64,000 nucleotides of DNA. Origin: a phage. Shown here in pieces: positions 1,055 to 61,720 of the stretch. The stretch is taken from sequence record PZ445432.1; one strand, written 5' to 3'. The notes under the pieces were generated by a model. The model saw nothing but the letters and a program-made list of their open reading frames with translations, had not been told where the DNA came from and did not search any database. Position 1 is the first letter of the stretch, and every line of letters begins with the position of its first letter. Both the position numbers and the translations under genes were made by a program.

Positions 1055-1090
1055 AGCTATAGTTCCTTTTGTTGGTGGATTTATCTAAAA

Positions 1091-2553: not shown

Positions 2554-2577
2554 ATTTAAACTCCTCTCTCAAATTTA

Positions 2578-6330: not shown

Positions 6331-6525
6331 TTAGACACTTAAAATACTTCTAATCTCTTCTATATACTTATCTACTTTTTTAGCATCTATTTTACTTAGT
6401 TTTCCTATATCAAAATCAGGATCAGTCAAATATCTTGCCATAAATTTTACTTGTTTAGCTGAAAGTTGACCCTTATTCCACTTTTTAATTTTACCATAAC
6501 ATACCCAATATTCTTTATTCATCAT
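6331..6525 (-). CDS. hypothetical protein
   Basis: ORF from track. Confidence 0.4.
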   Translation of the reverse strand: MMNKEYWVCYGKIKKWNKGQLSAKQVKFMARYLTDPDFDIGKLSKIDAKKVDKYIEEIRSILSV

Positions 6526-6907: not shown

Positions 6908-6916
6908 TGTGCCACC

Positions 6917-7345: not shown

Positions 7346-7347
7346 AT

Positions 7348-7854: not shown

Positions 7855-8023
7855 TTCTGTTCCTTTCTAAGAACGTATCATACTCAACCGTATCAACATA
7901 TATGACACCATAGTCATCGGATTTATAGTCCATTTCCCATAGCTCACATCGATAGCACCAACTACCATCCGCCCATACAAATATATCATCGGGATGTGTA
8001 TACACAGATTTAACTATGGACAT
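7841..8023 (-). CDS. hypothetical protein
   Basis: ORF from track. Confidence 0.35.
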   Translation of the reverse strand: MSIVKSVYTHPDDIFVWADGSWCYRCELWEMDYKSDDYGVIYVDTVEYDTFLERNRNGNK

Positions 8024-8838: not shown

Positions 8839-9032
8839 TATACGATTCCTCGCTTAAATCCTTCGATAATATTTCGGAGTAAAATTGCTTCCTCCGGGCG
8901 TACCTTCTCTTGCTTAATAAGCATATCCAATCCAGCAATACAACTAGTTACACCAGCATTATAACCAGAGTTCCATTGCTCAATGAGCATGTTTTCTAGA
9001 TTACTTTTTAGATTCTGATTCAAGAAGTCCAT
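8838..9032 (-). CDS. hypothetical protein
   Basis: ORF from track. Confidence 0.4.
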   Translation of the reverse strand: MDFLNQNLKSNLENMLIEQWNSGYNAGVTSCIAGLDMLIKQEKVRPEEAILLRNIIEGFKRGIV

Positions 9033-9225
9033 AAAGTTTCTCCTCTAGTCCCATAATACGATTTTCATAAGAAGCACGCAACTTTTCAATTGCCAGCGCA
9101 CGCACTGTAACCTCATTAGAATTAATAGCTAACTGGGCCAGATCTTCTGTTTCCATACGTCCGTTGTAAATTAAGCGATATTTAAGGTGTTTCACATTCT
9201 TGGTCATTATTAAACTCCACTGCAA
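9001..9225 (-). CDS. hypothetical protein
   Basis: ORF from track. Confidence 0.4.
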   Translation of the reverse strand: MQWSLIMTKNVKHLKYRLIYNGRMETEDLAQLAINSNEVTVRALAIEKLRASYENRIMGLEEKLYGLLESESKK

Positions 9226-9580
9226 CTGTTTCTAGGTCTTCGTCAAAAAAACTAGAGTATGTATCTTTAAGATACTGTTTAATACTCCAAGTAATATCTT
9301 CGTATCCATCTGGACTACGTTGGTATACTTTTAACACTCTATTATACACAAATTCAAGATTACATTTTACTTCATCTCTGTCTTCATCAAACAAGCAATA
9401 TGGGTTATATGGCGATACATCTAGATTTGTTTCCACCCAATCACCAATAACGGTGGGGTATCCAGCACCATCTATATGAGAGTAATCACCTGTGGCAGCA
9501 AAGACAGCCTCAGCAATATCATCCACGCCCAGATGGAAATCACCACATGTAGATTCAACTATATAGGGCTTTAATTCCAT
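9182..9580 (-). CDS. hypothetical acidic protein
   Basis: ORF from track; conserved promoter copy upstream at 9603-9648. Confidence 0.5.
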   Translation of the reverse strand: MELKPYIVESTCGDFHLGVDDIAEAVFAATGDYSHIDGAGYPTVIGDWVETNLDVSPYNPYCLFDEDRDEVKCNLEFVYNRVLKVYQRSPDGYEDITWSIKQYLKDTYSSFFDEDLETVAVEFNNDQECETP

Positions 9581-9602
9581 ATCTTTCTCCTCTCAAATTT
9601 AT

Positions 9603-9648
9603 AAATCTATTATACATAAATTTTTAGCTGAAAGCAAATAAAATAAAA
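9603..9648 (-). promoter_or_regulatory. conserved early sigma70 promoter
   Basis: minus strand: tatttgctttcagc ... tatgtataatagat. Confidence 0.5.
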
Positions 9649-9679
9649 GCCAGGTCGACTAGCAACCCGGCTGATTAGC

Positions 9680-11506
9680 TTACTTAAGATTTAAGTGTTT
9701 TACTCTACCAAGAACTTCTTTTTGTTTCCCAGAATTGAAAGGCCTACTGCTAGGGGATCCCAAGTACCCGCAAACCCTACGTGTAACCTCTATTTCTTCA
9801 GACCCACAACTCGGACATACAAACCCACGTTCAGAGGCAACAGATTCACCCATATACCCACAGTTGAAGCACTCATCAATTGGTATATTAACACCAATAT
9901 AATGGCTACATTCTAGCCCCTTATCCACCACATACTCAAGAGCTTTGTGGAACTTTTTCATTTGAGGTAGTTCCACAAATGATATATTACCACCATTAGC
10001 TATTTTGGTAAAATGAGCCTCGTACTCAAATTTAGTATCTGGGGCTACCTTCTCTCTTACGTCCAAATGGTGACTATTAGTGAGATAGCCTTTATCTGTT
10101 AGCCAAGAATACTCTGGGAATCTACGTTCTAGTAATTTATTAAAACGATTACATAGAGACTCACTAGGAGTAGCGTATAAGCTAAATCCAAGATTAGTCT
10201 CATTAGCTTTAACTTCGCAACGATTTTTTAGGTGAGTAAGAACTTCTTCTGTAAATTCAATACAATCCCTATGGGTTTGTGGTAGACCAAACATTATTTG
10301 GCACATCTCATAGACCCCAATGTATCCAAGAGATACAGAAGATCTACCCTCAAAAATAGGCCATACATACTCTTCCCCATCTAAACGCACACCAAAACCA
10401 CCGTGCATATAAAGAATAGGGGCTTGTTTAGCCTTAACTTTCTTCAGTCTGTTTAAGAAGAAGTCATGCGCTTCAAAAGCCTCATCCACATATTTGTCTA
10501 GAATATCCCAGAAATCTTCAAAAACCCCATCTGCCTCAGCAGCAACCATAGGTAGATTAATAGACACTACACCTAAATTATTGCGCCCTGCAATTTCTCC
10601 GGAGGGGATAGCAGATAAAAAGCTACGACAACCCATAGGTGCTTTAAAATCACCAGTAACAGCTACAACTTTCTCATAGCTTAAATAGTCCGGGTACATA
10701 CGGGTAGCAGAACACTCAAGTGCTAGCTGTTTTATATCGTAGTTAGGATCGCCTGGATTTTTATTTAACCCTTCTTTAACTGAGAATACTAGTTTAGGGA
10801 AGATAGGGGTTGACTCAGCAGCACCTAAACCTTTAATACGGTTTTGGAGGATGGCTTTCTGAATCATCCTTTCCTCCCACTCCTGTCCTAGCCCAAAGCC
10901 AAGCGTAACAAAAGGAGTCTGTCCATTAGAGTTAAATAATGAATTAGTTTCATACTCTAGGGCTTGGAATGCGTCATAACACTCTTTTTCAGTGAGTTCA
11001 GTAGCATATACAGCAGCTTTCCTTTCATCCTTGAGCCAACGTAGACCACGACCCAGGTGCTTATCATAAGACTTTCTGACATAAGGGGCTAAAACCTCAT
11101 CGATACGATCAATAGAAGTGCCACCATACTGAGCACCAGATACTTGGGCAATAATCTGAGCAGTGATTGCACATGCAGTAGTTATGGATTTAGGAGTTTC
11201 AATATTTGCATTACCAATTTTAGTACCATTCTTCAGCATGCCACCAAGGTCTACTAAACAACAGTTAGTGTATCCCTGTGCCCTGTAATCCATATCATGG
11301 ATGTGTATTTTACCTAGATTATGGGAGTCTAATAGATGTTTAGGTAATTCTTGTGCTACTAAATACTTGTTGATTTCTCCAGCTAATAAGTCTCTTTGGG
11401 TATGGAACATCTCACTAGGCTTATTAGCATTATTATGTTGTAAGTCCTTATCAGCAGTTAGAGTGAGCAGGCCTTTGCAATTCTCAATTAATTCATTCTC
11501 TGTCAT
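9680..11506 (-). CDS. nrdD: anaerobic ribonucleoside-triphosphate reductase
   Basis: C-terminal glycyl-radical motif RRVCGYLG and CxxC...CPSC zinc site; 608 aa. Confidence 0.9.
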   Translation of the reverse strand: MTENELIENCKGLLTLTADKDLQHNNANKPSEMFHTQRDLLAGEINKYLVAQELPKHLLDSHNLGKIHIHDMDYRAQGYTNCCLVDLGGMLKNGTKIGNANIETPKSITTACAITAQIIAQVSGAQYGGTSIDRIDEVLAPYVRKSYDKHLGRGLRWLKDERKAAVYATELTEKECYDAFQALEYETNSLFNSNGQTPFVTLGFGLGQEWEERMIQKAILQNRIKGLGAAESTPIFPKLVFSVKEGLNKNPGDPNYDIKQLALECSATRMYPDYLSYEKVVAVTGDFKAPMGCRSFLSAIPSGEIAGRNNLGVVSINLPMVAAEADGVFEDFWDILDKYVDEAFEAHDFFLNRLKKVKAKQAPILYMHGGFGVRLDGEEYVWPIFEGRSSVSLGYIGVYEMCQIMFGLPQTHRDCIEFTEEVLTHLKNRCEVKANETNLGFSLYATPSESLCNRFNKLLERRFPEYSWLTDKGYLTNSHHLDVREKVAPDTKFEYEAHFTKIANGGNISFVELPQMKKFHKALEYVVDKGLECSHYIGVNIPIDECFNCGYMGESVASERGFVCPSCGSEEIEVTRRVCGYLGSPSSRPFNSGKQKEVLGRVKHLNLK

Positions 11507-48886: not shown

Positions 48887-48902
48887 ACGTTAACAAAATC
48901 TT

Positions 48903-48931
48903 CTTGACATTATTTGAGCTGTATGTTATAA
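48903..48931 (+). promoter_or_regulatory. perfect-consensus sigma70 promoter (TTGACA, 17 bp, TATAAT)
   Basis: ttgacattatttgagctgtatgttataat; no ORF for ~1.7 kb downstream. Confidence 0.6.
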
Positions 48932-49225
48932 TAATCTCATAGATTAAAAACATCAACTTGTTTTTACCTCTAGGCCGTAGATTTACATCATTCCTCGTAG
49001 GAAAACACTTGATGACGGTTCTGTTCGCAGGTTCTCGTCAATTGTTCTTCCTCCCCGAGACTCAGGAGGATGTATCAAATCGCACGCGCCTAGAGGGGCT
49101 AACTCTCATGAAATGGGGGTATATTAACTTTTAAATAACTGATAAATATTTAAAGGCAATATCTGTGTTCAAGATGATACACCTGTTGCCGCTCATCTGC
49201 TAGGATGGCACAACACTTTCTTCTA

Positions 49226-50065
49226 GACTCCTAAGTTTCTAGGAAATTGATAAGCACAAATTCTAGAGATCGCACAAAAATATTCATCGGATTTGCACAT
49301 ATTCTAGGAAATTGATAAGTACAAAAATATTCATCGGATTTGCACATATTCTAGGGCAGTTTCTCTCAAACGTTACACATACTAGGCGGTTAATATAGGG
49401 CGGTTATAGGGAGGGCGGTTATTTCTAGGAGACATTTTTTGAAAACACATTTCTGGATTTTACTGTCGGATTTGCACACTGCATTTCTAGAAATTTATGG
49501 TCGGATTTGCACAAACGCCTAAGTTTTTAGGAACATATAATCTCTTGAAAATGGCAGCATTATTTCGGGCCGAAGGCCCATGATTGCCTGAGTTTTTAGA
49601 GCCACAGGAATTTTCACTTGTCAAGCTATTTTGCCCCATTTTGCTAATAAAATTTTACTTTTTCTGCACCTATCTCAAATTTCCCCAAATTATCTCAACT
49701 CTTCCCCAAAACCCCGCAAATCAGGTGCTCCGCACCAATCCTGCGCCCACACCATTCTAGCCTCCCAAATTTCTCTCGCTCTCTCATCTTCTCCTCAAAC
49801 CTATACAATCACACACCCTCTCATCGAAGTCACAAAAATTTCATCGGATTCGCACAAATAAACCCATGTCGGATTTGCACATATTCTAGCTAATTCCACA
49901 GGATTGATGCGCAGCATCGGATTGCTGGAGTTTTTGGGAAAATTCGTCGTCGGATTCGCACATCACAAAAGTTTTTAGGGTCGGATTTGCACACTACCAA
50001 AAATTGTCGGATTCGCACATACACGCCCGCACGTAACACCCGTGGAGCAATGTCGGATTTGCACA
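49226..50065 (+). repeat. array of ~12 direct copies of core tcggat(t/c)(t/c)gcaca, some inside longer ~50-bp repeat units
   Basis: repeated atcggatttgcacatattctag, gtcggatttgcacactgc, gtcggattcgcacat and similar, all on one strand. Confidence 0.7.
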
Positions 50066-50071
50066 AAAGCG

Positions 50072-50089
50072 CAGGGCAATTGCCCTGCG
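50072..50089. repeat. 18-bp perfect palindrome gcagggcaattgccctgc
   Basis: read directly. Confidence 0.7.
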
Positions 50090-50094
50090 ACTTT

Positions 50095-50335
50095 GAATGA
50101 GAATCATTATCATTTAAGAAGTGGAATGCAAATGATAATTATTCTCATTTAAGAAGTGGAATGATTCTCATTTAATAAGTGGAATGCAAATGATAATTAT
50201 TCTCATTTAAGAAGTGGAATGAGAACTATTCAAGAAGTGAAACGATTCTCATTAAAGAAGCGAAACGATTCTCATCCTAGAAAGGGAATGCAAATGATAA
50301 TGATTCTCATTTAAAAACGGAAGTGAGAAACACTG
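50095..50335 (+). repeat. tandem degenerate repeats of (g)attctcatttaagaagtggaatg
   Basis: about 8 copies with variants aagaagtgaaacg / aagaagcgaaacg / aaaaacggaagtg. Confidence 0.7.
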
Positions 50336-50344
50336 TTATTTAAG

Positions 50345-50452
50345 TTATCCACAGACTTATTAACAGCACGATTTGACTTGACAGAATCCTAGCCATTTTG
50401 AGGCGTTATCCACAGACTTATCCACAGCTTATTCTACTGTATAAATATACAG
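50345..50452. repeat. left inverted module with three DnaA-box 9-mers (TTATCCACA) and 16-bp palindrome ctgtataaatatacag
   Basis: ttatccaca at ~50345, ~50406 and ~50418; palindrome at 50437-50452. Confidence 0.7.
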
Positions 50453-50648
50453 TATTCCTACGCAGTGAATAATTCTAATATAGGCCTAAAACGTCCTGAA
50501 TCGCATTCTAGCGCGTTTTATTTTGGCGGGGATACTAAAACAAGGGCAAAACTGGAGGAGGCTTAGAAATTAGTTAGCTCGCTAACGATCACACAAGGCG
50601 ACACGTAACACCCTAATCATTAGCAGGCTAACCATCGCGGGCGCGGTC

Positions 50649-50669
50649 AAATGAGAATCATTCTCATTT
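50649..50669. repeat. 21-bp palindrome aaatgagaatcattctcattt
   Basis: read directly; related to the gattctcattt repeat unit. Confidence 0.6.
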
Positions 50670-50709
50670 GAGGATTGGGGGCACTTCCTGATAATTGCCC
50701 CCGTGATTA

Positions 50710-50904
50710 TTAGTCCGGTAATTGATGCGTGATCTTCTCCTCTTCCCCGTAGGAATCGACTAAATGCTGATAATAACCATCATGATCATAAATGACTTTA
50801 TCATATTCGCCCAGCTCGACCGCTTGCCGGTTTTCCGGAGTATCGGGCACATAAAAAACGTCAACCATTGTGGTAGTTTTGGTCACAATAATTTTATCGC
50901 TCAT
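50710..50904 (-). CDS. hypothetical protein
   Basis: ORF from track. Confidence 0.45.
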   Translation of the reverse strand: MSDKIIVTKTTTMVDVFYVPDTPENRQAVELGEYDKVIYDHDGYYQHLVDSYGEEEKITHQLPD

Positions 50905-50919
50905 AATAACGCCCCGTTA

Positions 50920-51114
50920 TTAGTTGACTATCTCAAAGATAGCGTTCTCAAGTGTCGCCCTTAGGATCCCATCGCGCCCTACTACGGAATACTTGAGATC
51001 AGGTATTTTGTAACGCTCAATTGCTTTGAGTAATTGATCTTTTTGGGCTTTATATTTTTGCCCTTCTCGCGCTATCGTGTCGCCTTCGGCTTTAATGCAA
51101 ATCAGTGTAACCAT
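50920..51114 (-). CDS. hypothetical protein
   Basis: internal ATG preceded by AGGGGG RBS; track ORF extends to 51201. Confidence 0.45.
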   Translation of the reverse strand: MVTLICIKAEGDTIAREGQKYKAQKDQLLKAIERYKIPDLKYSVVGRDGILRATLENAIFEIVN

Positions 51115-51396
51115 AATAATCCCCCTAGTAAATATATTTTTGCCAATAGCGGCGAACGTTATCGCCACCAGCGGAATCATTAGCTGCCTTACTATTACCA
51201 ACGAAAATATATAATCTCATTAGTATTATTTTCCCCGCATTAATTTATACATAACTAACATCCCGCAAAACTGACCTAAGATAGTGCAGACAACAAGGGA
51301 TAACACAATATTGCCTATGGTGTTATAAGTAACCACACCAACAATAAGGGATAATGCATACCCTAGCAGGGCAATATAAACAGCCATATTATTTAC

Positions 51397-51732
51397 CTAT
51401 TTTCGAAACGCTGTTTCAATACTATCAGCCGTGGATTGAATATACGCGCCTTTCATTATCAGGCGCTCGGTGCATACTTTGCGAAAAATATTAATAAAAT
51501 CATCTTCATTTTCTGCGATTAACGCCTCCCCCATGACCTGAATATCACACGATGCAAAGGTCAAAAATTGAAACGCTAGTTCACGGGCGACGACCGCATT
51601 AATTTTATAATGCGCCTTTCCATCGTAAATATTAACAACGCCCTTATATTCAGGCGAAAGCTGATTTAAGTAGTTTGCTAATAATCCCGGGCGGCAATTA
51701 GTAACAAAGCGATTCCCTTCATAAATTACCAT
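51397..51732 (-). CDS. hypothetical protein
   Basis: ATG preceded by GGGAGG RBS. Confidence 0.5.
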   Translation of the reverse strand: MVIYEGNRFVTNCRPGLLANYLNQLSPEYKGVVNIYDGKAHYKINAVVARELAFQFLTFASCDIQVMGEALIAENEDDFINIFRKVCTERLIMKGAYIQSTADSIETAFRK

Positions 51733-51855
51733 TTTATAACCTCCCAATCAGATAGCCAGATAAAAGCATAAAAATCCCCAGCGAACTAGGGTCATTCTTA
51801 AACAAGGTGGCGGTAAAACCGCCAACCATTGCAAGGATAACAACAATAACGCTTT

Positions 51856-52068
51856 TCATAGTACCCCACGAAACGCAGCGTAAAAGGTGGCAAAGTGTCT
51901 AACCGTTTCAGCTATCACGTTGCCGCGCTTATCGAATTTTTTCTCGGTAACACGAAAGGCGTTTTTATTCCGTGCTACATATTCGATTTTACAATCTTCC
52001 CGCTCGAACGTGTTAACGTCCACCAGCTTAAAGCCTTTGGAACGAGCAAGGGAAACATTACGAATCAT
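51856..52068 (-). CDS. hypothetical protein
   Basis: ORF from track. Confidence 0.45.
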   Translation of the reverse strand: MIRNVSLARSKGFKLVDVNTFEREDCKIEYVARNKNAFRVTEKKFDKRGNVIAETVRHFATFYAAFRGVL

Positions 52069-52070
52069 TT

Positions 52071-52259
52071 TTATTCTCCTTTACTATTCATGCAGCCCAG
52101 CAGATAAGAAAATACAGCGACACCCGCGCCAATAATAACCATAGGTTTAGTATTTGCTAAACTGCAATAAGAATCCTGAATACCATAAGCGGTGGCGAAA
52201 AGAGTCAAAATAGCGCCCAAGATACCTGCTAAAAAAGCCCGAAAAATAACCATTTTCAT
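52071..52259 (-). CDS. small membrane protein
   Basis: two hydrophobic helices. Confidence 0.4.
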   Translation of the reverse strand: MKMVIFRAFLAGILGAILTLFATAYGIQDSYCSLANTKPMVIIGAGVAVFSYLLGCMNSKGE

Positions 52260-52299
52260 TCTCCTAGTTAGTGGGGCGAAAGTAGCGCCCCGTTATTAC

Positions 52300-52530
52300 T
52301 TACATTAAAACGATTTTGGCGGCTTGTTTTTTGGTGCAATGTTCTGCTTTCAGGGTATCCAGCAAAAAGCCCGCCGTTTGCTGATCGATTTGATCATTAT
52401 CATAAAGCGCCTGAATGGTAGTGTAAGTTTTAGCAATGCCGTATTCTTGCACCATTTCTTGAATGATCCAGCGATTTGATACCCAGCCTTTTCCAGTGAA
52501 AAGATGACTAGCAGAAGAATAAGCAACCAT
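52300..52530 (-). CDS. hypothetical protein
   Basis: ORF from track. Confidence 0.45.
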   Translation of the reverse strand: MVAYSSASHLFTGKGWVSNRWIIQEMVQEYGIAKTYTTIQALYDNDQIDQQTAGFLLDTLKAEHCTKKQAAKIVLM

Positions 52531-52648
52531 TATAAGCCTCCAAAATTTTTTGGGAAATTTTCAACCGTCCTCAAACGGTGTAAGGGCATTATAACAAAAA
52601 GGCCGCCATAATCGGCGACCTTTACAAAACTTTACATTAGATTATTTA

Positions 52649-53641
52649 TTACTCGTTTTCGGTGTTAGTGGTAAAAGTAGAAATATCGATACCTTTTACC
52701 ATTTCATCAATCATCTCAGCGATGTTAAAACTTTGCACCATTTCCAACATTGCCGCTTCCATAGCCGCTCCTGCTACCGCTTTCGCTTTCTGGTTATTCG
52801 GGGCGTACTGGTCAACCGCTACACTCAGCAGGTTAGCGATCACTACTCGACCGATCGGCGTATCAATATAGCCTTTAATCATAAATGGCGCTTTTTTAGC
52901 CGCTACTTTCGTGATTTGAGTTAGTGCAATTTTACCCGCTTCCAGTTTTGCAGCATTTACAACAGCGGATTTATTAGCGGCAACGATGTTAGCGATCTTA
53001 GTCATGGTATTTTTTCCTTTGTTTTCAGTGGTTTGAGTGTTAACGCTTTGAGTGTTAGAATTTACAGCATGTTTTTCTATATTGTCAATAGGCTGATCTT
53101 CATCTTTCCAGAAAGAAAAGCCCGCGCTTTCTATATCCCCATCGTATACGTATGGGTATACTTCCGACGGTAGCAAAAAATTGCCATCATCATCAAAGGC
53201 CATTACAGCCGCCAGACGATACCCGTCACCGATTGACCGATTCCAGCCAACTGATAAATAACGCCAAAATGAATCAAGAAAGTTTTCAACGTCATAAAGA
53301 TCCTTATCATAAGGCTCATAATTTTCTATTGAAAAAACTTCTAAGCCCGCCCCAGCATCATAGGCTTTTACTGTGCTACCTTTTACGATTATGAAATCAG
53401 TGTCCGGCCCCCTACTAGTAAGCAGGTGATTATCCCTATTATATAAGATAATAGTTGCCCCTTGCTTATATAATGGTAGAAAACTACTCATATCATAGGC
53501 GTCGAAATCATCAAAAAAATTCTGGTGAATATCTTCGGCCTTGTTAACAAAGTGCTTAATGCTGGTTGTTCTGCTACCGTCCAGCAGGTTGCGCAGCGCA
53601 CCTTTTAAGACGGTTGCGTTATCTGGTTTATATAGCCTCAT
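52649..53641 (-). CDS. hypothetical protein (330 aa)
   Basis: ORF from track; largest gene in the inverted-repeat-bracketed block. Confidence 0.55.
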   Translation of the reverse strand: MRLYKPDNATVLKGALRNLLDGSRTTSIKHFVNKAEDIHQNFFDDFDAYDMSSFLPLYKQGATIILYNRDNHLLTSRGPDTDFIIVKGSTVKAYDAGAGLEVFSIENYEPYDKDLYDVENFLDSFWRYLSVGWNRSIGDGYRLAAVMAFDDDGNFLLPSEVYPYVYDGDIESAGFSFWKDEDQPIDNIEKHAVNSNTQSVNTQTTENKGKNTMTKIANIVAANKSAVVNAAKLEAGKIALTQITKVAAKKAPFMIKGYIDTPIGRVVIANLLSVAVDQYAPNNQKAKAVAGAAMEAAMLEMVQSFNIAEMIDEMVKGIDISTFTTNTENE

Positions 53642-53907
53642 TTGTTGGCCTCCCTCGTTAATCGGTGAGTGAATGATAAAGGCAATTTTCTAGCATAGGC
53701 AAATATTATTTTACCTTTTTATTTTCCTTGCCTAGCGCCTAGTTTTATGCTAACCGCGCAGCGGTACAGTAAAGAGCAAAACACGGTGAAGCCACCAGGC
53801 CGACGCGTTGAGGCTTTACTTTAATATTACCCCACTGCGTTTAGCTCGTTAGAAAGCGATTTAGGCCGCTTAAAATTGATTGCAGTTGTTAACACTACCT
53901 TTTTACC

Positions 53908-54015
53908 CTGTATATTTATACAGTAGGATAACCTGTGGATAAGTCTGTGGATAAGCCCTTATATCGCCGCCTATTGTGTCAAATCATTTTGTGCTGTGAT
54001 TAAGTCTGTGGATAA
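53908..54015. repeat. right inverted module with three DnaA-box 9-mers on the opposite strand and palindrome ctgtatatttatacag
   Basis: tgtggataa at 53934, 53946 and 54007; palindrome at 53908-53923; reverse complement matches the left module. Confidence 0.7.
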
Positions 54016-54039
54016 CTTAAATGATAGTTTTTCTCACTT

Positions 54040-54420
54040 AGGCCGATAGTTTCTTATAGTGATTATTTTTATAGTGATTATTTTTATAGTTATTATTTCT
54101 CATTAATTTATATGTATATTATATAATATGAAATAGTTAGTTGGCTAATGAGATTTTACGGGATTAGTAGTCTGCTAATGGTTCAGGCTGTTACAATCCA
54201 CCAGCACGATTATCATTCTAGTAATTATTAGTCTGCTATCTTTCTAATACACAACAACAAATAAAAGTCAATTAATTAATTTTATAAAATAACTCATTTA
54301 GTCTTGATTTTTAAAAGTCAATACCTTTTACAACTATTTTTCAATTTTGCTTTTATTAAATATTTGTTAAGTCGAAAATAAGCCGCCTAAAACGCCCTAG
54401 AAAGCGGTAAAATTTTCAGG
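54040..54420. repeat. AT-rich region with short direct repeats (ttatagtgattattttta copies; agtctgctaa copies)
   Basis: read directly; adjacent to the DnaA-box module. Confidence 0.55.
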
Positions 54421-54765
54421 TATCCCATCATAAGGGGATAGCCCGTTTATCGTCACCTGATGGATTCTAGAAAAATCAAGTAGGGCAAGGCAAATATAAG
54501 TGAAAAAATTACTTGCCTATCTGCTATGTTTTGTGGTATCCGCGCGCCCGTTTCCTTTAAACTTGGGCAATCGCCGGACACCTTGCTTTCTTTACATTTC
54601 TTTACAAAAATAAGGTTGCGCCATTTTTGGTATTTGCTATTATTTACCTCGTAGGGCGGCAATGACGAACTACACGGCGGGAAGTTTACCGCCGCGCTCT
54701 TTAAAAATTGGGTATATCTTAAAGTCTATCGGCGGCAAACTTATACATTATAAGGAATCGCAGAT

Positions 54766-54969
54766 ATGAAACAAACTTTATTGATCACTGGCAAGCCAGC
54801 TAAAAAACTGGATGGCAATACTAGAAAGCTGTTGACAGTAGCGCAAAGATCAGTAAAATATCGATTTAAGCAGTACAAGAAAGGCCGCCAGCAAGGTCTA
54901 GAAATGATCTGGCGAAATATTATGATCGACCTAAAGGAAAATCATAAAAAACTGCAAAAAATTGTTTGA
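54766..54969 (+). CDS. hypothetical basic protein
   Basis: AAGGA RBS. Confidence 0.45.
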   Translation: MKQTLLITGKPAKKLDGNTRKLLTVAQRSVKYRFKQYKKGRQQGLEMIWRNIMIDLKENHKKLQKIV

Positions 54970-55134
54970 CAACCTAGCCGATAGGCTTTAAGATGTACCC
55001 AGTTCGATAAGAGCGATAACTTGATACAATTTGACGGCCGGTACTTGCCATAATGTGCCCCGCCCCCTAACTGGGATATAGCGGCCCGCGTGGAGTTCTT
55101 TAAATTGATTATATTGGCAAGCGGATTTTTTCTT

Positions 55135-55160
55135 ATTACCTGCTAGAAAGTAGCAGGTAA
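55135..55160. promoter_or_regulatory. palindromic operator-like site ttacctgctagaaagtagcaggtaa
   Basis: perfect 11-bp arms around a 4-bp centre, ~40 bp upstream of ORF 55198. Confidence 0.4.
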
Positions 55161-55197
55161 TGCGGAACAATCCACTAAATAAACTGGAGTTTATACT

Positions 55198-55449
55198 ATG
55201 CAAAACATTACTAATGCGCCGAAAGTTGGTCAATCCGTTTTTATCCCTTTCGTTACTAAAACGGACGAGGCAACCGGAAAGGCCGAACGCATCAAAGGCG
55301 CGGCGCTTATGCCGTTTGATGTGATTGATGCGGTATACGCTGAAACGGAACAGAGTAACAACGGGAAAACCGTTTTTAGCGTTCGCGTTAAATCCGGCGA
55401 CGTTGTAAAGGTTGCCCAGCGTAACGAAAAATGGGAAGCTGTAGCGTAA
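55198..55449 (+). CDS. hypothetical protein
   Basis: GGAG RBS. Confidence 0.5.
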   Translation: MQNITNAPKVGQSVFIPFVTKTDEATGKAERIKGAALMPFDVIDAVYAETEQSNNGKTVFSVRVKSGDVVKVAQRNEKWEAVA

Positions 55450-55552
55450 TATAGTGTTAACTTTATATTCCCCCAGTAGTTCGGGGGGAATATAACGATT
55501 AACATTATGTTAATCATTTAATCCCTTAAATTAAATCGATAGGAGCTATATC

Positions 55553-55969
55553 ATGACTAACGTTAAAGCCGAAAAATCCGCAAAATTTGCTTGGAATGAA
55601 GAAAACACCCAGCAGGCGGTTACTATGTATCAGCAGTTAATTAATGAAAACGGATTAGATTTTGCAAATAGCGACGGTTTAAAAGAGATTGCGAAAGCAG
55701 TTGGCGCGGCTTCTCCCGTGTCCGTTCGGTCAAAATTGACCAGCGCGAAAGCCTATCAAAAAAGCGATAAGCCGCGCAAAGTTGGCGGCGGCAGTTCAAT
55801 CCGCAAAGCGCATTACGTGCGCGTTATTGCAAAACATGCCATCGATTCCGGCATTATCAAGGACGCCGATGATCTGGCATCACTGGAAAGCGCAAAATTA
55901 GAAACGTTGGACGTCGTGGCGCAGATGTTAGGCGTTGCCGATGAAGTAAAACAAGCCGCAGGCGAATAA
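55553..55969 (+). CDS. hypothetical protein
   Basis: ORF from track. Confidence 0.5.
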   Translation: MTNVKAEKSAKFAWNEENTQQAVTMYQQLINENGLDFANSDGLKEIAKAVGAASPVSVRSKLTSAKAYQKSDKPRKVGGGSSIRKAHYVRVIAKHAIDSGIIKDADDLASLESAKLETLDVVAQMLGVADEVKQAAGE

Positions 55970-56058
55970 TAGTTATATCTTGCCCCTTCTAGCGAGGGGG
56001 CAATAATATAACTGTTTAGCGATAGTTATTTTCTTCCCCTAAATCAGGAGTTTTAAAA

Positions 56059-56256
56059 ATGATCTTTTACCCTACTGAATCGCTCATTCTAGGATTATTT
56101 ATTATGGCGGCCTCATTATTGTTTGCTTATTTCCAAAATGATCTGGATTCGTATTATTTTAAGCGCAAAGCTAAATTAGCAAAGCGGTTGGGCTTACTTT
56201 GCTTAATTGCCGCCGTTGCTTGTGGTGTTAGTTCTAGCCTGATGCCGATTAGTTAA
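56059..56256 (+). CDS. small membrane protein
   Basis: two hydrophobic helices. Confidence 0.4.
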   Translation: MIFYPTESLILGLFIMAASLLFAYFQNDLDSYYFKRKAKLAKRLGLLCLIAAVACGVSSSLMPIS

Positions 56257-56353
56257 ATATCGCAAGTTATAACGCCTATTATTTAAGGCGTTATATCTGG
56301 CAATATTGCCAATAACAAACGTTTTTTAATCCCTTTAATGGAGTTTTATTATT

Positions 56354-58024
56354 ATGGTTATTTCCGCAGAAAAACAAACCCAGATCCTCAACCTTGCCGC
56401 TGATTTCAATTTCTATGGTAAACGTCTGCGCGCTACTAAGCTGGAAGTTTGTGACGATATTTCAAAAGCTGTTTATGATACGCCGAAACATTCCACCGCT
56501 ATTTGTGACTGGTTGGAAGCAAATAAACCAGCGAAACCGAAAGCGGCGAAAGTAGCAAAAGCCATAAAAAACGATGACCGCCCTGAAGCCGCTGGAGTTA
56601 TTTCTAGCACGGTGGAGCAATGGGAAGTAAAACAAGGCAAACGCTTTATCATTACATCGATTCAGAATAATACTTTCCCGCATAAAAACTTTTTGGCCGC
56701 GCTTGAACAATATGCCCAATTTATTGGAGCTGATTTGCTGGTTAGCAAGTATATTTATAATAAAAACGGTTTTCAAAATGGGGAAGGGGCAGACGGAATC
56801 AAATATGATTCTGCATTTGACAAATATATTTGCAGCAAAAACGTGTTTTTAAATAACCGCCGCTTTGCTTTCATGGCTGAAATTAATGTTTTGCCAACCG
56901 CAGATTATCCGCTATCTGGATTTGCTGAAACTGCAACCGCGCTTAATCTGGAAGGTCTGGCAATTGGTCACGCTAAAATCACCGCCGAAAGCGTGCCAGC
57001 TTTAAAAGGTGAAGTAGTGCGCCGCATGTATTCAACCGGAACGGCAACGCTAAAAAATTACATTCAGCAGAAGGCAGGGCAAAAAGCGGAAGCGTTACAT
57101 AATTTTGGTGCGCTGATTGTCGAGTTCGACGAGGACGGAGAATTTTTTGTTCGCCAGCTTGAAACGATGGACGAAAGCGGCGTTTTTTACGATTTGAATA
57201 TTTGCGCCACTCCCACCGGATGCTATGAAACAACGGGGCACGTTTTAGGTTTACAGTATGGTGACATCCACGCTGAAAAATTAGATGAAGAGTGCGCCGC
57301 TGCATCATGGGGGCATGGTGATACCTATGGGCTTGTGGATATTCTCAAACCAAAATATCAATTCGTCCATGACGTGCATGATTTTACATCACGCAACCAT
57401 CACAACCGCGCCTCCGGTGTATTCCTAGCAAAACAGTACGCCGCCGGACGTGATAAGGTTCTGGATGATCTTATCGATACGGGGCGCGTACTGGAAGCAA
57501 TGGAGCGTGATTTCTCTCAAACAATCATTGTTGAATCGAATCACGATCTGGCGTTATCCCGCTGGCTTGATGATCGTAATGCTAACATTAAAGACGACCC
57601 AGCAAACGCGGAACTATATCACCGCCTGAATGCCGCGATTTACGGAGCTATCGCAGAAAAAGACGAAACCTTCAACGTGCTTGATTATGCGTTGCGCAAG
57701 GTTGCAGGTTGCGAGTTTAACGCCATTTTCCTAACGACTGACCAATCTTTCAAGATTGCAGGCATTGAATGCGGCGTACACGGTCACAATGGCATTAACG
57801 GGAGTCGTGGCAATCCTAAACAGTTTAAGAAATTGGGCAAATTAAACACGGGGCATACTCATACGGCAAGCATTTACGGCGGTGTATATACCGCTGGCGT
57901 TGCTGGTAGTCTGGACATGGGTTACAACGTTGGCGCGTCAAGCTGGACGCAAACGCATATTATTACCTATGTAAACGGTCAGCGCACTTTGATTGACTTT
58001 AAGAATGGTAAATTTTTCGCATAA
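56354..58024 (+). CDS. A1: pre-early protein A1-like (metallophosphatase-like motifs)
   Basis: 556 aa as recalled for T5 A1; GDIHAE and GHNG...GHTHTA motifs; synteny with A2-like and dmp-like genes. Confidence 0.7.
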   Translation: MVISAEKQTQILNLAADFNFYGKRLRATKLEVCDDISKAVYDTPKHSTAICDWLEANKPAKPKAAKVAKAIKNDDRPEAAGVISSTVEQWEVKQGKRFIITSIQNNTFPHKNFLAALEQYAQFIGADLLVSKYIYNKNGFQNGEGADGIKYDSAFDKYICSKNVFLNNRRFAFMAEINVLPTADYPLSGFAETATALNLEGLAIGHAKITAESVPALKGEVVRRMYSTGTATLKNYIQQKAGQKAEALHNFGALIVEFDEDGEFFVRQLETMDESGVFYDLNICATPTGCYETTGHVLGLQYGDIHAEKLDEECAAASWGHGDTYGLVDILKPKYQFVHDVHDFTSRNHHNRASGVFLAKQYAAGRDKVLDDLIDTGRVLEAMERDFSQTIIVESNHDLALSRWLDDRNANIKDDPANAELYHRLNAAIYGAIAEKDETFNVLDYALRKVAGCEFNAIFLTTDQSFKIAGIECGVHGHNGINGSRGNPKQFKKLGKLNTGHTHTASIYGGVYTAGVAGSLDMGYNVGASSWTQTHIITYVNGQRTLIDFKNGKFFA

Positions 58025-58079
58025 TTAAATTATTCCCTAGCGGCTTGAAATATAGCCGCTATTACAGGAGCCACAAAAA

Positions 58080-58370
58080 ATGAAAATTAATTTACCTAGC
58101 AATGAATTTTCCCCTAAAACTTCTTTACTAGATGATATTTCTTATCAAGATGCTTATATAAATGAGGAAGTATATCGCGCTTGTTCTGACCTCCTAGAAT
58201 ATCCCGATTATCCAATCTATAAAGGTGATTTCATTATACCCGTTTATAATGGTGTGCTAGTAGTAGGCAAAGCTGGGGTTATTGTTATAGATAGTTGTAC
58301 ATTGTCACAAGAAACGTTTAAAGTGCCACTAGAGTTAACTAATTATTCTCCTAGTATTACAGTACAATAA
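58080..58370 (+). CDS. hypothetical protein
   Basis: ORF from track. Confidence 0.45.
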   Translation: MKINLPSNEFSPKTSLLDDISYQDAYINEEVYRACSDLLEYPDYPIYKGDFIIPVYNGVLVVGKAGVIVIDSCTLSQETFKVPLELTNYSPSITVQ

Positions 58371-58407
58371 ATTAAGTCCCTTATTAAACTAATTGGAGTT
58401 TATAAAT

Positions 58408-58800
58408 ATGAAAAAGCAAAATATCCCATTCGATCGCGCTCAGTCTTCTATCGTTCTGGTTTATTCTAATGGTGCGCGGTATCACGTCGAGGCCGGTCAC
58501 GTTGTCGATGACTTAATCGAGTTTAATGACGTTTTGCAGGTTACTACTTTCGCCTATACCACGGGCAAGCTATCCAGCCGCATCAAGGCGAAAGGCGTTC
58601 ACATTGACACGATGAAACAAGAAACCATCATTATTGACGCGGTAAAATCCGGCCTAGCCTTTGCAGTTGTCGCGCCTTGCCCCGCTTGCCTTGATGATCA
58701 GCTAATGAGCGCAAAAGTATTTACTTGTGCGGGGATTCGTTCCGATGTATCAGGTGAAGATATTAGTTTTATCGCTGATGCGCTGGCTTATGGTCTTTGA
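58408..58800 (+). CDS. A2: pre-early protein A2-like
   Basis: ~130 aa between A1 and dmp; start at ATG after GGAG RBS. Confidence 0.5.
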   Translation: MKKQNIPFDRAQSSIVLVYSNGARYHVEAGHVVDDLIEFNDVLQVTTFAYTTGKLSSRIKAKGVHIDTMKQETIIIDAVKSGLAFAVVAPCPACLDDQLMSAKVFTCAGIRSDVSGEDISFIADALAYGL

Positions 58801-58880
58801 TAGTTGATTTATTATTGCCCGCTGATAAATAGCGGGCAATGCTGGATAAACTAAATCCCTTTAATGGAGAACGTAACAAA

Positions 58881-59615
58881 ATGAATCAAGTTAAAACGAA
58901 TATTACCCGTAATTTCCCGCATGTTTCCCGCGTCATGATCTGGGATCTGGATGGCACTATCGTTAACTCATTCCATCGCGTAGCGCCTTGCTTTGATAGT
59001 GATGGTAATCTAGATCTGAATAAGTATAAAAATGAAGCGTGCAAACATGATTTAATAATGCAAGATACTTTATTGCCGCTTGTTACATATATGCGCCAAT
59101 GCATGAATGACGCAAATACTTTAAACATTATTTGTACCGCTCGACTGATGAGCAAGTCGGACTATTATTATTTGCGCAAACAAGGCTTGCGAGGGCGTGG
59201 GAATAGCAATATCCGTGTATTTTCCCGCGATACACTGCATAAGTATTTTGAAGCTGATAAAGTTAGCGAAATATACCACAGTAAGGACGCAGTTTATAAA
59301 AGCCACTACTTTGAGTTATTTAAGCAGTTATATCCGAACGCTGATTTCACGATGATAGACGATCATAAAGGTGTGCTAGCAGCGGCGGCATCATACGGAT
59401 TTAAAACGTTGGACGCGCAAGCCGTTAACGATATTCTATCAATCGGTGTTACATTGATAGGCGAAACCTTTATCGACGAATCTCTTGAGGATGATAATGA
59501 TTATCAGTTCCTAGTCGATCGCTTGCAATTATGTTGGGAAAGTATGACCGAGGAAGAACGCGCAGAATATAGTTGCAGCCCGCAACAATATATCGAGAAA
59601 CTAAAAGTTGCATAG
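58881..59615 (+). CDS. dmp: 5'-deoxyribonucleotidase (HAD family)
   Basis: MIWDLDGTIVNS HAD motif I; 244 aa from the internal ATG with GGAG RBS. Confidence 0.7.
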   Translation: MNQVKTNITRNFPHVSRVMIWDLDGTIVNSFHRVAPCFDSDGNLDLNKYKNEACKHDLIMQDTLLPLVTYMRQCMNDANTLNIICTARLMSKSDYYYLRKQGLRGRGNSNIRVFSRDTLHKYFEADKVSEIYHSKDAVYKSHYFELFKQLYPNADFTMIDDHKGVLAAAASYGFKTLDAQAVNDILSIGVTLIGETFIDESLEDDNDYQFLVDRLQLCWESMTEEERAEYSCSPQQYIEKLKVA

Positions 59616-59630
59616 TAATTAAAGTTGATA

Positions 59631-59670
59631 TTGTTTCACCTTGCAATTAAAATGGTTGCAAGGTGAAACA
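59631..59670. terminator. 15-bp perfect inverted repeat hairpin between convergent genes
   Basis: tgtttcaccttgcaa ...10 nt... ttgcaaggtgaaaca; no T-tract. Confidence 0.45.
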
Positions 59671-59790
59671 GTTAGCATGATAATAGTAACGGGGGTGGCG
59701 GTTAGCAGACTAAGTATTTTCGCCCAGCCCACTGCACCCACCCACGCGTACGTAATCCAAAGAATTTGGCAAAAGTCATTTTAGCGCTAA

Positions 59791-60330
59791 TTACCTGTTT
59801 AATTGGGCAACGTCTGGTATACTTCCTTTGAACATCTCCTGTATTGCAAAGTCACCATGAAATGTCCTTCTTAGTAAATTTGCATAATTTACGGCATCTT
59901 CTAATTCGCTATAGGGAAAGTACTTAGTAGTGCCCCTTATCAGCCCCTGTTTATCGTGTAATCTTACCATCCACTTCTGAAGTTCTTTATGCCATGTAAC
60001 ATTTAGATAGCCTGATGATGCTCTTGAGATTCTGCCATTATGATTATTCTCTGTAATTGAAGCCTCTCTTAAATTTGACCATCTATTATTTAGTTTATTC
60101 CTATCTATGTGGTCTACACATTCCTCTGGCCATCTATTCTCCATAATAACAAAAGCTACTTGATGTGCATAAGCTTTAAACCCTCGATACTTGAGCTGCC
60201 TATATCCCCTATTTAAAGTACCTGCTTCTTTACCCTTACGATTGCCGCTTTTCCAGGTAAAAACTCCAGTTTCGGGGTCATAAGCAAATACTTCTTGTAT
60301 TTCCTGTATATTTAGATTATTCTTCACCAT
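59791..60330 (-). CDS. HNH homing endonuclease
   Basis: VDHIDRNKLNNRWSNLRE HNH signature; N-terminus paralogous to the other HNH ORFs. Confidence 0.7.
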   Translation of the reverse strand: MVKNNLNIQEIQEVFAYDPETGVFTWKSGNRKGKEAGTLNRGYRQLKYRGFKAYAHQVAFVIMENRWPEECVDHIDRNKLNNRWSNLREASITENNHNGRISRASSGYLNVTWHKELQKWMVRLHDKQGLIRGTTKYFPYSELEDAVNYANLLRRTFHGDFAIQEMFKGSIPDVAQLNR

Positions 60331-60372
60331 GAACCTCCATGTGTAATCTTATGAAATTTGGCAAAAGTCAAA

Positions 60373-60618
60373 TTAGTGCATAGAAGGGTCATCAAACCTG
60401 TGTTCTGGTCTAAACTCACGGAATCTCTTCCGCGACGCCCGAGAACCATCATTCCACTCCCGTTCAAACTCCGCACGTTTCTCATCGAACTTCCGCTCCC
60501 TTTCCGCAATCTCCCGCGATACTTCCGCAATATATTTACGATGCCTGTCGATAGCCGCAGTCATCCCGAAAACTCCCGCAAGTACCCCGATAATAAAAGC
60601 AATTATAATACTAAACAT
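60373..60618 (-). CDS. membrane-anchored hypothetical protein
   Basis: N-terminal TM helix then charged region. Confidence 0.4.
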   Translation of the reverse strand: MFSIIIAFIIGVLAGVFGMTAAIDRHRKYIAEVSREIAERERKFDEKRAEFEREWNDGSRASRKRFREFRPEHRFDDPSMH

Positions 60619-60805
60619 CTAATTCCCTCTCAATTTGCAGAATACGGGTGCTACCACAACGTTGCAGTAGTACTAGCTTTTCTAGAGCAACTTGTTGTTG
60701 TTTTACTTGAGCTTCTAGAGTTTTTAGGCGAACATACGCGTTATAAGAAACAATGAAAGTTGCCCAGACTAGTATTACTATTAGTGTAGCTACTATTTCC
60801 ATCAT
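60611..60805 (-). CDS. small TM/coiled-coil peptide (tandem paralog family)
   Basis: MEIVATLIVILVW... TM helix followed by LEAQVKQQQ coiled-coil. Confidence 0.4.
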   Translation of the reverse strand: MMEIVATLIVILVWATFIVSYNAYVRLKTLEAQVKQQQVALEKLVLLQRCGSTRILQIERELDV

Positions 60806-60908
60806 TTACGCTTCTCCGTTAATAAGGTTTCAATTCTAGCTAAGTGATTATCTAAAATACATTGCCCGATAATCACAATCCCTAGTAGTGCAATAATTAC
60901 CCATTCCA

Positions 60909-61094
60909 TTATTTACGCTCCTCTAATAAAGTTTCAATTCTAGATAATCTATTGCTCAACTGCATTAATTTAACCTCTACTTGGGTTACAGAGGTATCTA
61001 TTACACGTAAGCCTACAAAGAGAAGTATTAGTAAGACGAATATGCCAATAATTACCCATTCCATTAAATCCACCCCGCCATAGCTGCTAACCAA
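60909..61094 (-). CDS. small TM/coiled-coil peptide (tandem paralog family)
   Basis: MEWVIIGIFVLLILLFVG... then RLSRIETLLEERK; a third 35-aa copy lies at ~60808-60910. Confidence 0.4.
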   Translation of the reverse strand: MVSSYGGVDLMEWVIIGIFVLLILLFVGLRVIDTSVTQVEVKLMQLSNRLSRIETLLEERK

Positions 61095-61368
61095 AAACCT
61101 ACGAAAATAAAGAATAGAATAGTTCCGAATCCAAAGCTATTAATCCAGCTATCGTACACTTCCCCACGTCTACTTTTTCTTCTGTTTGACATATCTTTCA
61201 TGCTCCTATAAGTGCGGTATTTGAAATATTCTATAACTTGTGCACAACCAACCGTGCCTATGAACTCCTAGAAGGACTTCTACTTTTCCTACCTAGTGGT
61301 TTCTGCCAGTACACCATCCGAGAAATAAAAAATTTAGTTTACTTGGATGTCTTTTTGCTTTATACTAA

Positions 61369-61635
61369 TTACAGGTAGTTAGATTGCTCTAGTTTAAATT
61401 TACAATCACCGTATTTAAGATCAAACTGACTGAGATCCCACCACCCAAACTTAGTACGGAGCTGTACTACTGGAAAGCGATCTCCCTTAATACGAACTTT
61501 TTGAACCTTGAGGCCGTAATGCTCCTCCCCAGCACCGCCAAAAGATTTTACAAATCCCGTACAAAATGGTTTGGGAGCAGGTGCACAACCAGATAACATA
61601 GCTGCGGCAACTAGTGCAATTACAAACTTTTTCAT
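61369..61635 (-). CDS. llp: Llp-like lipoprotein (receptor-blocking superinfection exclusion candidate)
   Basis: lipoprotein signal with lipobox LSGC; divergent from and adjacent to the putative receptor-binding protein gene. Confidence 0.6.
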   Translation of the reverse strand: MKKFVIALVAAAMLSGCAPAPKPFCTGFVKSFGGAGEEHYGLKVQKVRIKGDRFPVVQLRTKFGWWDLSQFDLKYGDCKFKLEQSNYL

Positions 61636-61659
61636 ATTTATCTCTCCATTTCTAATTTA

Positions 61660-61702
61660 TGAATCTATTATAGCAAAATAGAGGGATGAAAGCAAATACA
61701 TT
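61660..61702 (-). promoter_or_regulatory. conserved early sigma70 promoter driving the llp-like gene
   Basis: minus strand: aaaaatgtatttgctttcatcc ... gctataat. Confidence 0.55.
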
Positions 61703-61720
61703 TTTATAATAGGAGATTAT

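Follow-up and report, generated by a model that had tools for sequence, protein, structure and literature searches.

The window analyzed here, a stretch of 64,000 nucleotides of phage DNA (sequence record PZ445432.1), contains, between positions 48,887 and 61,720, pre-early genes of the T5 type and a repeat-rich tract, with early genes on one side and genes for a receptor-binding protein (RBP) and an Llp-like lipoprotein on the other. This arrangement raises the question whether a terminal repeat is represented only once, with the physical ends of the virion DNA falling inside the window, and, if so, at which bases. The original prediction was that both ends do fall here, with a 15-bp hairpin at 59631-59670 and the edge of the repeat region near 48.9 kb as candidate boundaries.

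Source of the DNA and form of the record

The source of the DNA is the T5-like coliphage HildyBeyeler: the window is 100% identical to Escherichia phage HildyBeyeler (Bas33, MZ501074.1, Tequintavirus), apart from one ~5-kb deletion (5,041 bp, within the tRNA cluster). The deletion is unrelated to the terminal-repeat finding; the window is not colinear with the GenBank record. Within the full record of 111,607 bp, the 10,140-bp pre-early block is present once, the remaining matches being short internal repeats only, and the record length is close to that of T5 minus one repeat (121,750 - 10,219 = 111,531).

The present analysis itself shows which phage this is, that its record holds one copy of the block, that the genes follow the T5 order, that injection-stop repeats of the T5 type are present, and that the block edges are homologous to mapped ends of relatives; the assembly procedure and the coverage are taken from the literature. 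According to the depositors (PMC8594841), repeated genome ends were fused into circular contigs that were linearized at the small terminase gene, and among the Markadamsvirinae genomes listed there, the terminal repeat appears twice only in the T5 reference. The read-coverage check proposed with the original prediction has been published for Bas33 (PMC13250531, 2026): Nanopore coverage is approximately doubled over the pre-early region and falls off sharply at each boundary. Together with the single block copy, these two reports bear out the claim that the repeat is represented once and that the genome ends lie inside the window. The arbitrary record start corresponds to position 63518/63519 of the window, at the following gene; the oad and small terminase genes of T5 are natural neighbors.

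63519-64000, plus strand: small terminase gene, 5' part (bases 1-482 of the GenBank record)

The form of the record is best explained by the structure of the virion DNA of T5-like phages, which is linear, with the same ~10-kb pre-early (first-step-transfer) block at each end. Short-read assembly merges the two copies, so that the contig closes into a circle shorter than the genome by one repeat, and this circle was then opened by the depositors at the small terminase gene. The left-to-right layout would accordingly consist of the unique early region (to 49598), the merged repeat copy (49599-59738), the unique late side (HNH, small ORFs, llp and RBP) and the terminase gene. That the window holds a single-copy repeat and both physical ends in a permuted record, resulting from a collapsed assembly opened at the terminase gene, is in our judgment nearly certain. 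The opposite reading, in which the genome is circularly permuted or has short ends, with no terminal redundancy and the observed order contiguous in every virion, draws on the GenBank entry itself, a linear 'complete genome' of 111,607 bp without a repeat feature. Its probability appears negligible, given the circularization via repeated ends reported by the depositors, the sharp-edged twofold coverage, and the terminal repeats of 8.4-10.2 kb that cover the same genes in all characterized close relatives.

A collapsed-repeat junction of this kind is ordinary and already documented, and the junction itself implies no new biology. It matters mainly for bookkeeping, whenever the record is used to derive genome length, numbers of restriction sites, the copy number of genes, synteny or terminus-dependent biology. 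With a collapsed repeat, the virion DNA would be ~10.1 kb longer than the record (~121.7 kb), and ~18 pre-early genes would be diploid in the virion.

Gene order and repeats of the pre-early block

The genes and repeats from the early side to the RBP gene are as follows.

48161-48886, plus strand: last unique-early ORF, T5.018-like, bas33_0167 (phrog_8993, E 8e-115)
48887-49598, no strand: unique non-coding spacer on the early side, outside the repeat (homologous to T5 10220-10608, outside the T5 left repeat)
49599-59738, no strand: putative single copy of the long direct terminal repeat, ~10,140 bp (colinear with T5 left repeat 10219..1, 78-93% identity)
49844-50330, no strand: repeat arrays within the terminal repeat, from repeat families and pattern positions (T5 'Repeat Region 3')
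50321-50452, no strand: 132-nt inverted repeat, arm 1 (equivalent to T5 IRD'-spacer-IRC', T5 coordinates 9332-9462)
50710-53641, minus strand: nine small-to-medium pre-early ORFs, T5.011 to T5.017-like (annotation, T5 homology)
53908-54039, no strand: 132-nt inverted repeat, arm 2 (equivalent to T5 IRC-spacer-IRD)
55553-55969, plus strand: A2, DNA-binding protein required for second-step transfer (93% identical to T5 A2; phrog_1725)
56354-58024, plus strand: A1, DNA transfer protein (phrog_1745, E 5e-244; annotated A1)
58393-58800, plus strand: T5.002-like ORF, 135 aa (85% identical to T5.002; phrog_4576)
58881-59615, plus strand: dmp, deoxynucleoside-5'-monophosphatase (96% identical to T5 dmp)
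59791-60330, minus strand: HNH homing endonuclease (PF13392, phrog_99)
60373-61192, minus strand: five small ORFs of the unique late side, T5.159 to T5.162-like (annotation bas33_0187 to bas33_0191)
61369-61635, minus strand: Llp/Cor-like receptor-blocking lipoprotein (phrog_1119, LPAM_1 lipobox; annotated superinfection exclusion protein)
61721-63508, plus strand: receptor-binding tail-tip protein, pb5-type (phrog_4815, E 2e-268; annotation)

The RBP gene, the llp-like gene, the repeat-rich non-coding region, and the tRNA and replication genes named in the original prediction are each present, the tRNA genes at 25-31 kb and the replication genes further left. The repeat is bordered, as in T5-type genomes, by the early region at one edge and, on the left-end-copy side, by llp and the RBP gene. 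The three genes dmp, A2 and A1 are likewise present, but the order proposed for them is incorrect in detail; the actual order is dmp, T5.002-like, T5.003-like, A1, T5.005-like, A2, in the same order and orientation as T5 1-4134. A2 lies beyond A1, and the T5.002-like ORF between dmp and A1 was probably mistaken for A2. The HNH gene, the five small ORFs between dmp and llp, and the nine minus-strand pre-early ORFs, which include a DUF7566 protein gene (52649-53641; PF24450, phrog_4263), were missing from that description.

The repeats make up a T5-type injection-stop architecture, namely, a ~131-nt inverted repeat pair, eight paired DnaA-type boxes and DRD-type repeats (ten copies of TCGGATTYGCACA). 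Four of the ten clustered TCGGATTYGCACA copies are located in the spacer, which also contains a perfect sigma-70 consensus site (48904-48932) and in which T5 homology starts at 49168 (T5 position 10608); the other six, at 49844-50065, are followed by tandem 23/35/58-nt repeats of CAAATGATAATTATTCTCATTTAAGAAGTGG at 50083-50330. The arrays at 49844-50330 fit Davison's description of the DRD, DRE and DRB repeats of T5. The inverted repeat arms are 83% complementary and carry two pairs of DnaA-type boxes each, with the members of a pair 3 bp apart; six boxes match the consensus (50345, 50406 and 50418 in arm 1; 53934, 53946 and 54007, on the minus strand, in arm 2) and two are variants. The T5 equivalent of arm 1, IRD'-spacer-IRC', is a proposed injection stop signal.

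Predicted physical ends and the hairpin downstream of dmp

The block 49599-59738, colinear with the T5 left repeat, should occur at both virion DNA ends. The ends were placed by homology to T5 and BF23, of which the BF23 ends have been read-mapped with PhageTerm; exact base positions are accordingly predictions from homology. The T5 orientation is the reverse complement of the window, with the left end at 59737/59738 and the right end at 49599.

49599-49617, plus strand: first repeat bases GAGCCACAGGAATTTTCAC, homologous to the position at which T5 and BF23 DNA have their right physical end
59632-59670, plus strand: conserved stem-loop of 15-17 pairs, 17 nt past the dmp stop and 68 nt inside the repeat end
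59728-59738, plus strand: left-end motif CCCACTGCAC(C), homologous to the left, first-injected physical end

T5 position 10219 (= 121750) and the PhageTerm-derived BF23 end at 114544 both align to 49599, and the HdH2, X5 and NBSal003 records start or end at the homologous base, suggesting that the right virion end lies at 49599. Sources differ on the length of the T5 repeat, 10,139 bp versus 10,219 bp; 49599 is preferred because AY543070 is self-consistent at 10,219 and BF23 agrees, and an uncertainty of 80 bp, up to 49679, remains. At the other edge, T5 position 1 and BF23 104801, where the right repeat of BF23 begins, align to 59738; the records of SP15, GEC_vB_N3/N5, Spc35, AKFV33 and 3sent1 begin 0-3 nt from this position, where relatives have CCACTGGAC(A) or GGCAGTGGACA, and contigs end 109-123 nt past the dmp stop. 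The left, first-injected end would thus lie at 59737/59738, 122-123 nt past the dmp stop codon, with dmp as the last gene before it. The last 13 nt inside this end are unlike T5 and BF23 and resemble NBSal003 and Kenya-K18. These two coordinates are a concrete prediction for end mapping. In T5, a CCAC(A/T)G-like string occurs 4-9 nt from each 5' end, and related strings are seen by eye in HildyBeyeler; as a motif common to both termini, this string was rejected, since its short length and its variability among relatives leave it indistinguishable from chance.

Placing the edges of the collapsed repeat at the hairpin and near 48.9 kb, for a repeat of ~10.7 kb, is very unlikely. The repeat-rich non-coding tract does start at 48887, and records of the chee24 group annotate the left repeat from 16 nt past the dmp stop, that is, at the hairpin. 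The 48.9-kb edge, though, is the stop codon of the T5.018-like ORF, that is, the end of the last early ORF, and the T5 and BF23 ends map 712 nt inside it and 68 nt beyond the hairpin; more than 10 other records and contigs end at the T5/BF23-homologous bases, and the repeat-rich tract of T5 is itself known to run past the repeat edge into unique DNA. The passages found of the chee24 paper do not mention terminus mapping. The annotated repeats of the Kenya phages fall short by 33 nt on the left and 19-101 nt on the right; like that of chee24, their extents were set aside as the main guide, because they disagree with the ends of T5 and BF23 as well as with the majority of the other records.

The hairpin itself is real. 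Its arms (59632-59646 and 59656-59670) form 15 perfect pairs (z = -3.9 against shuffles), and the 130-nt stretch containing it folds as DNA at -23.9 kcal/mol. Across 23 relatives, 97.8% of the cells are paired, compared to 33-51% with the partners slid; in 9 of the 17 pairs both partners have changed, and the dmp-sense strand shows G-U wobbles. This behavior of a conserved structured element suggests that the hairpin probably belongs to the 3' end of the dmp transcript and does not mark a genome boundary. As a rho-independent terminator it was rejected: a stable, G+C-containing stem-loop is present, but the stem is followed by GTTAGCATGATAATAG, without a T/U run 3' of it, and a terminator scan made no call on either strand. 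An Rfam scan of 48800-61800 gave no match at E <= 0.1. Between the hairpin and the left end, a conserved segment (59697-59737) comprises a second small stem and a CCACTG-type motif. It is conceivable, albeit doubtful, that this segment and the stem-loop, 68-106 nt from the left end, constitute an undescribed cis-acting signal beyond a passive mRNA 3' hairpin; if so, the T5-type terminase might recognize the left terminus by this signal, or the signal might protect or terminate first-step-transfer transcripts running toward the free DNA end.

The HNH gene is inserted 53 nt outside the predicted left end, at a site where T5 and BF23 have none, and a shifted cut site is therefore possible. The left cut site might have moved in HildyBeyeler such that the collapsed repeat extends past 59738 and includes the HNH cassette, to ~60.33 kb. 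The ~50 nt that lie just outside the T5/BF23 terminus are duplicated around the HNH gene (59738-59787 and 60333-60379); because these diverged copies bracket the cassette, the outside context of the cut site is present twice. The inside-terminus motif CCCACTGCAC, in contrast, is found once only, at 59728-59737; Kenya-K18 carries the same HNH insertion outside its annotated repeat; and the contig of NBSal003, with the same cassette, ends at the homologous base before the HNH gene. We consider such a shift highly improbable and retain the collapsed repeat with its predicted left end at 59737/59738.

Comparison with T5, BF23 and other tequintaviruses

T5 (AY543070 / NC_005859) shares with HildyBeyeler the order dmp, T5.002, T5.003, A1, T5.005, A2, T5.007, T5.008, followed by the block of T5.011 to T5.017. 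The two also have the injection-stop layout in common, in which DnaA boxes are paired within a 131/132-nt inverted repeat and DRD repeats extend beyond the edge of the terminal repeat. In both, the repeat lies between llp and pb5 at one edge and T5.018 at the other, and T5 positions 1 and 10219 correspond to the HildyBeyeler edges in a base-for-base alignment. Several differences are apparent: the block is present once in the HildyBeyeler record because the assembly collapsed; the T5 HNH gene hegG (T5.010) is absent, leaving a gap between 54179 and 54267, whereas a different HNH gene is located just outside the left end; and the RBP is of the BF23/BtuB type, 595 aa compared to 640 aa in T5.

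BF23 (OR083247.1) has PhageTerm-mapped terminal repeats of 9,743/9,744 bp, with edges that align to the same positions as those of T5, and its RBP and receptor-blocking lipoprotein genes are of the same lengths as in HildyBeyeler (595 and 88 aa). The BF23 record contains both repeat copies and no HNH gene beside the left end, where the last 13 nt differ. In other Tequintavirus records deposited from an arbitrary start, such as SE11, OSYSP, GSP044 and Salten, one repeat copy is likewise internal, between the RBP/llp and early genes; these records differ from that of HildyBeyeler only in the chosen start point and strand.

Gene order and copy number of the terminal repeat

A megablast search against phage records identified Escherichia phage HildyBeyeler (Bas33, MZ501074.1/NC_105119.1), a Tequintavirus from the BASEL collection with a 111,607-bp record, as a 100% match to window positions 48000-64000; from window position 28619 onward, the record position equals the window position plus 48089. 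Window 63518 is the last base of the GenBank record; the remaining 63519-64000 corresponds to record bases 1-482, where the small terminase gene begins. Because the end and the start of the record both fall inside the window, the record's own ends are arbitrary, and the window derives from a copy that had been circularised or rotated differently. Across 63518/63519, the window passes from the end of the receptor-binding protein (RBP) gene to base 1 of the small terminase gene. In T5, these two genes (the RBP gene is oad) adjoin each other naturally, and the join is not a physical end.

The record annotation and the searches performed here agree on the genes around the junction (see list). The original prediction gave the order of the pre-early genes as dmp, A2, A1; these genes are all present, but A2 was misplaced: the neighbour of dmp is a T5.002-like ORF, and A2 lies past A1, as in T5.

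Genes around the junction (window coordinates; strand where assigned)
61721-63508, +, RBP
61369-61635, -, Llp/Cor-like lipoprotein
60373-61192, -, five small ORFs
59791-60330, -, HNH homing endonuclease
58881-59615, +, dmp (96% identity to T5 dmp)
58393-58800, T5.002-like ORF of 135 aa, adjoining dmp (85% identity to T5.002)
58080-58370, T5.003-like ORF
56354-58024, A1
56059-56256, small membrane ORF
55553-55969, A2 (93% identity to T5 A2)

Several lines of evidence support the interpretation that the terminal repeat is represented once and that the genome ends lie inside the window. When the whole GenBank record was rebuilt from three pieces and searched with the 10,140-bp block that we take to be the repeat, a single occurrence was found, all other matches being short internal repeats, the longest of them a 132-nt inverted repeat. 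The record length is close to that of T5 minus one repeat (121,750 - 10,219 = 111,531 bp), and the depositors of the Bas33 record also state that only one copy is listed (PMC8594841). The coverage analysis proposed with the original prediction has already been published for Bas33: Nanopore coverage is approximately twofold over the pre-early region, with sharp boundaries, which the authors attribute to a direct terminal repeat (PMC13250531). The homology to the T5 and BF23 ends described below points in the same direction. Thus, the interpretation is supported, and the underlying observation is confirmed in part, given the misplacement of A2.

In the linear molecule, both junctions seen in the window would be real, one leading from the left repeat into the early genes and the other from the llp side into the right repeat; the artefact of representation would be the single repeat copy flanked by both. 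The same arrangement would be expected in a replicative circle or concatemer, which corresponds to the genome minus one repeat. The single-copy layout is an assembly and deposition convention that many Tequintavirus records share; it is already known and reflects neither misassembly nor anything new.

Separately, 5,041 bp of the record (MZ501074.1 71,667-76,707), within the tRNA cluster, are missing from the window; this stretch holds approximately 13 annotated tRNA genes, and ARAGORN detects only 10 tRNAs in the window. The deletion junction, at window 28604-28618, falls within 15 identical nucleotides (GGGTTCGAATCCCA-type T-arm sequence) that tRNA-Leu(TTA) has in common with a tRNA-like sequence lying 5 kb downstream, and leaves a chimeric tRNA-like gene; the intact junction was found in no phage record. 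Another laboratory's Bas33 stock is reported to carry a different deletion at this locus (69,093-78,836), and similar deletions have been reported in T5 variants (PMC13250531).

Probable positions of the physical ends

The T5 reference annotation places the left repeat at 1-10219 and the right repeat at 111532-121750, and the record is self-consistent inasmuch as its last 551 bases are identical to 9669-10219. For BF23, repeats of 9,743/9,744 bp were obtained from reads with PhageTerm. On the right side, window 49599 (the G of GAGCCACAGGAATTTTCAC) aligns with T5 10219 and with the right end of BF23, and the records of HdH2, vB_SpuM_X5 and NBSal003 end or start at the same base. On the left side, window 59738, located 123 nt past the dmp stop codon, aligns with T5 position 1 and with the first base of the BF23 right repeat. 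Six records (SP15, GEC_vB_N3, GEC_vB_N5, Spc35, AKFV33 and 3sent1) start 0-3 nt from the equivalent of 59738, and several of these starts may simply reflect T5-based orientation. Contigs that encode a dmp relative and end downstream of it mostly do so 109-123 nt past the stop codon, with ...CCACTGGAC(A) or ...GGCAGTGGACA as their last bases; indels account for the 13-14 fewer intervening bases in the 109-nt group, whose ends are therefore at the homologous position. The HildyBeyeler equivalent of this string is CCCACTGCAC(C), ending at 59737/59738.

Given the alignment of the T5 and BF23 ends to 49599 and 59738, we infer that the repeat spans window 49599-59738 (approximately 10,140 bp), so that the virion DNA would be approximately 121.7 kb. 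In the orientation of the window, the molecule would start at 49599 and end at 59738 after one full turn plus the repeat, the latter end corresponding to the T5 'left' end, the first to enter the cell. These end positions carry some uncertainty. One source gives a T5 repeat of 10,139 bp instead of 10,219 bp, which would place the right edge at 49679, 80 bp further in. In the Kenya phage records, the annotated repeats fall short by 33 nt on the left and by 19-101 nt on the right, and the chee24 group annotation starts the repeat 16 nt after dmp; terminus mapping does not figure in the searched passages of the chee24 paper.

Positions 49599 and 59737/59738 replace the two boundaries proposed originally, a 15-bp hairpin at 59631-59670 and an edge near 48.9 kb. 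The latter corresponds simply to the last early ORF's stop codon, and the following 712 nt (48887-49598) are unique DNA. Directly after this ORF, facing the non-coding repeats and the terminal repeat, there is a perfect sigma-70 consensus (48904-48932, +; TTGACA, 17 nt, TG-extended TATAAT; 12/12 matches).

The HNH homing endonuclease gene is inserted 53 nt outside the putative left genome end, and its flanks (59738-59787 and 60333-60379) are two diverged copies of the approximately 50 nt located beyond the terminus in T5 and BF23. This cassette is shared with NBSal003 and Kenya-K18 but is absent from T5 and BF23. A further source of uncertainty in the left end position is that the 13 nt just inside it match the NBSal003/Kenya-K18 type and differ from T5 and BF23.

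The hairpin downstream of dmp

The predicted 15-bp hairpin is present (arms 59632-59646 and 59656-59670, z = -3.9); it is unlikely to be a genome boundary, as it lies 68 nt from the end of the putative repeat, on the inner side. In the 23 relatives compared, two unrelated sequence classes form the stem in the same alignment columns. Across these relatives, 97.8% of the stem cells are paired, compared to 33-51% with partners slid by 1-3 columns, and 9 of the 17 stem pairs show changes on both sides. The covariation score was matched by none of 500 shuffles, a control that takes no account of sequence relatedness; much of the signal arises from the difference between the two classes, with further compensatory changes within each.

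At several stem positions, G-U wobbles occur on the dmp-sense strand only, where the opposite strand would have A-C mismatches; this points to an element acting in the dmp transcript. The stem is not followed by a T-run, the hairpin yielded neither a call in the terminator scan nor an Rfam match, and it is not annotated in the examined stretches of the T5, BF23 and HildyBeyeler records. It is probably a hairpin that stabilises or terminates the 3' end of the pre-early dmp message. Between this hairpin and the terminus, a second small stem (GGCGGTTAGCAGACTAAGTATTTTCGCC) lies at 59697-59724; the other class carries TAATGAGACTCATT at the equivalent position, and, because both are self-complementary, there may be a second conserved structure beside the left end.

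Comparison of the repeat with that of T5

The repeat-rich non-coding tract noted originally is present and, as in T5, runs past the edge of the repeat. Ten clustered, same-strand copies of TCGGATTYGCACA occupy 49287-50065, four of them outside the putative repeat and six inside; elsewhere in the 64-kb window, there is only one copy, at 47892. The block is colinear with positions 10219..15 of the T5 left repeat, sharing 78-93% identity, with the exception of the T5 homing endonuclease hegG (T5.010, T5 5411-5929), which is absent from HildyBeyeler: at window 54179-54267, the homology skips from T5 6018 to T5 5419 over 88 nt. The 132-nt inverted repeat, with arms at 50321-50452 and 53908-54039, is the counterpart of IRD'-spacer-IRC' and IRC-spacer-IRD of T5. 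It contains eight DnaA-type boxes, six conforming to the consensus and two variant, arranged as four pairs with 3-bp spacing. At the sequence level, this organization agrees with Davison's account of the proposed injection stop signal of T5.
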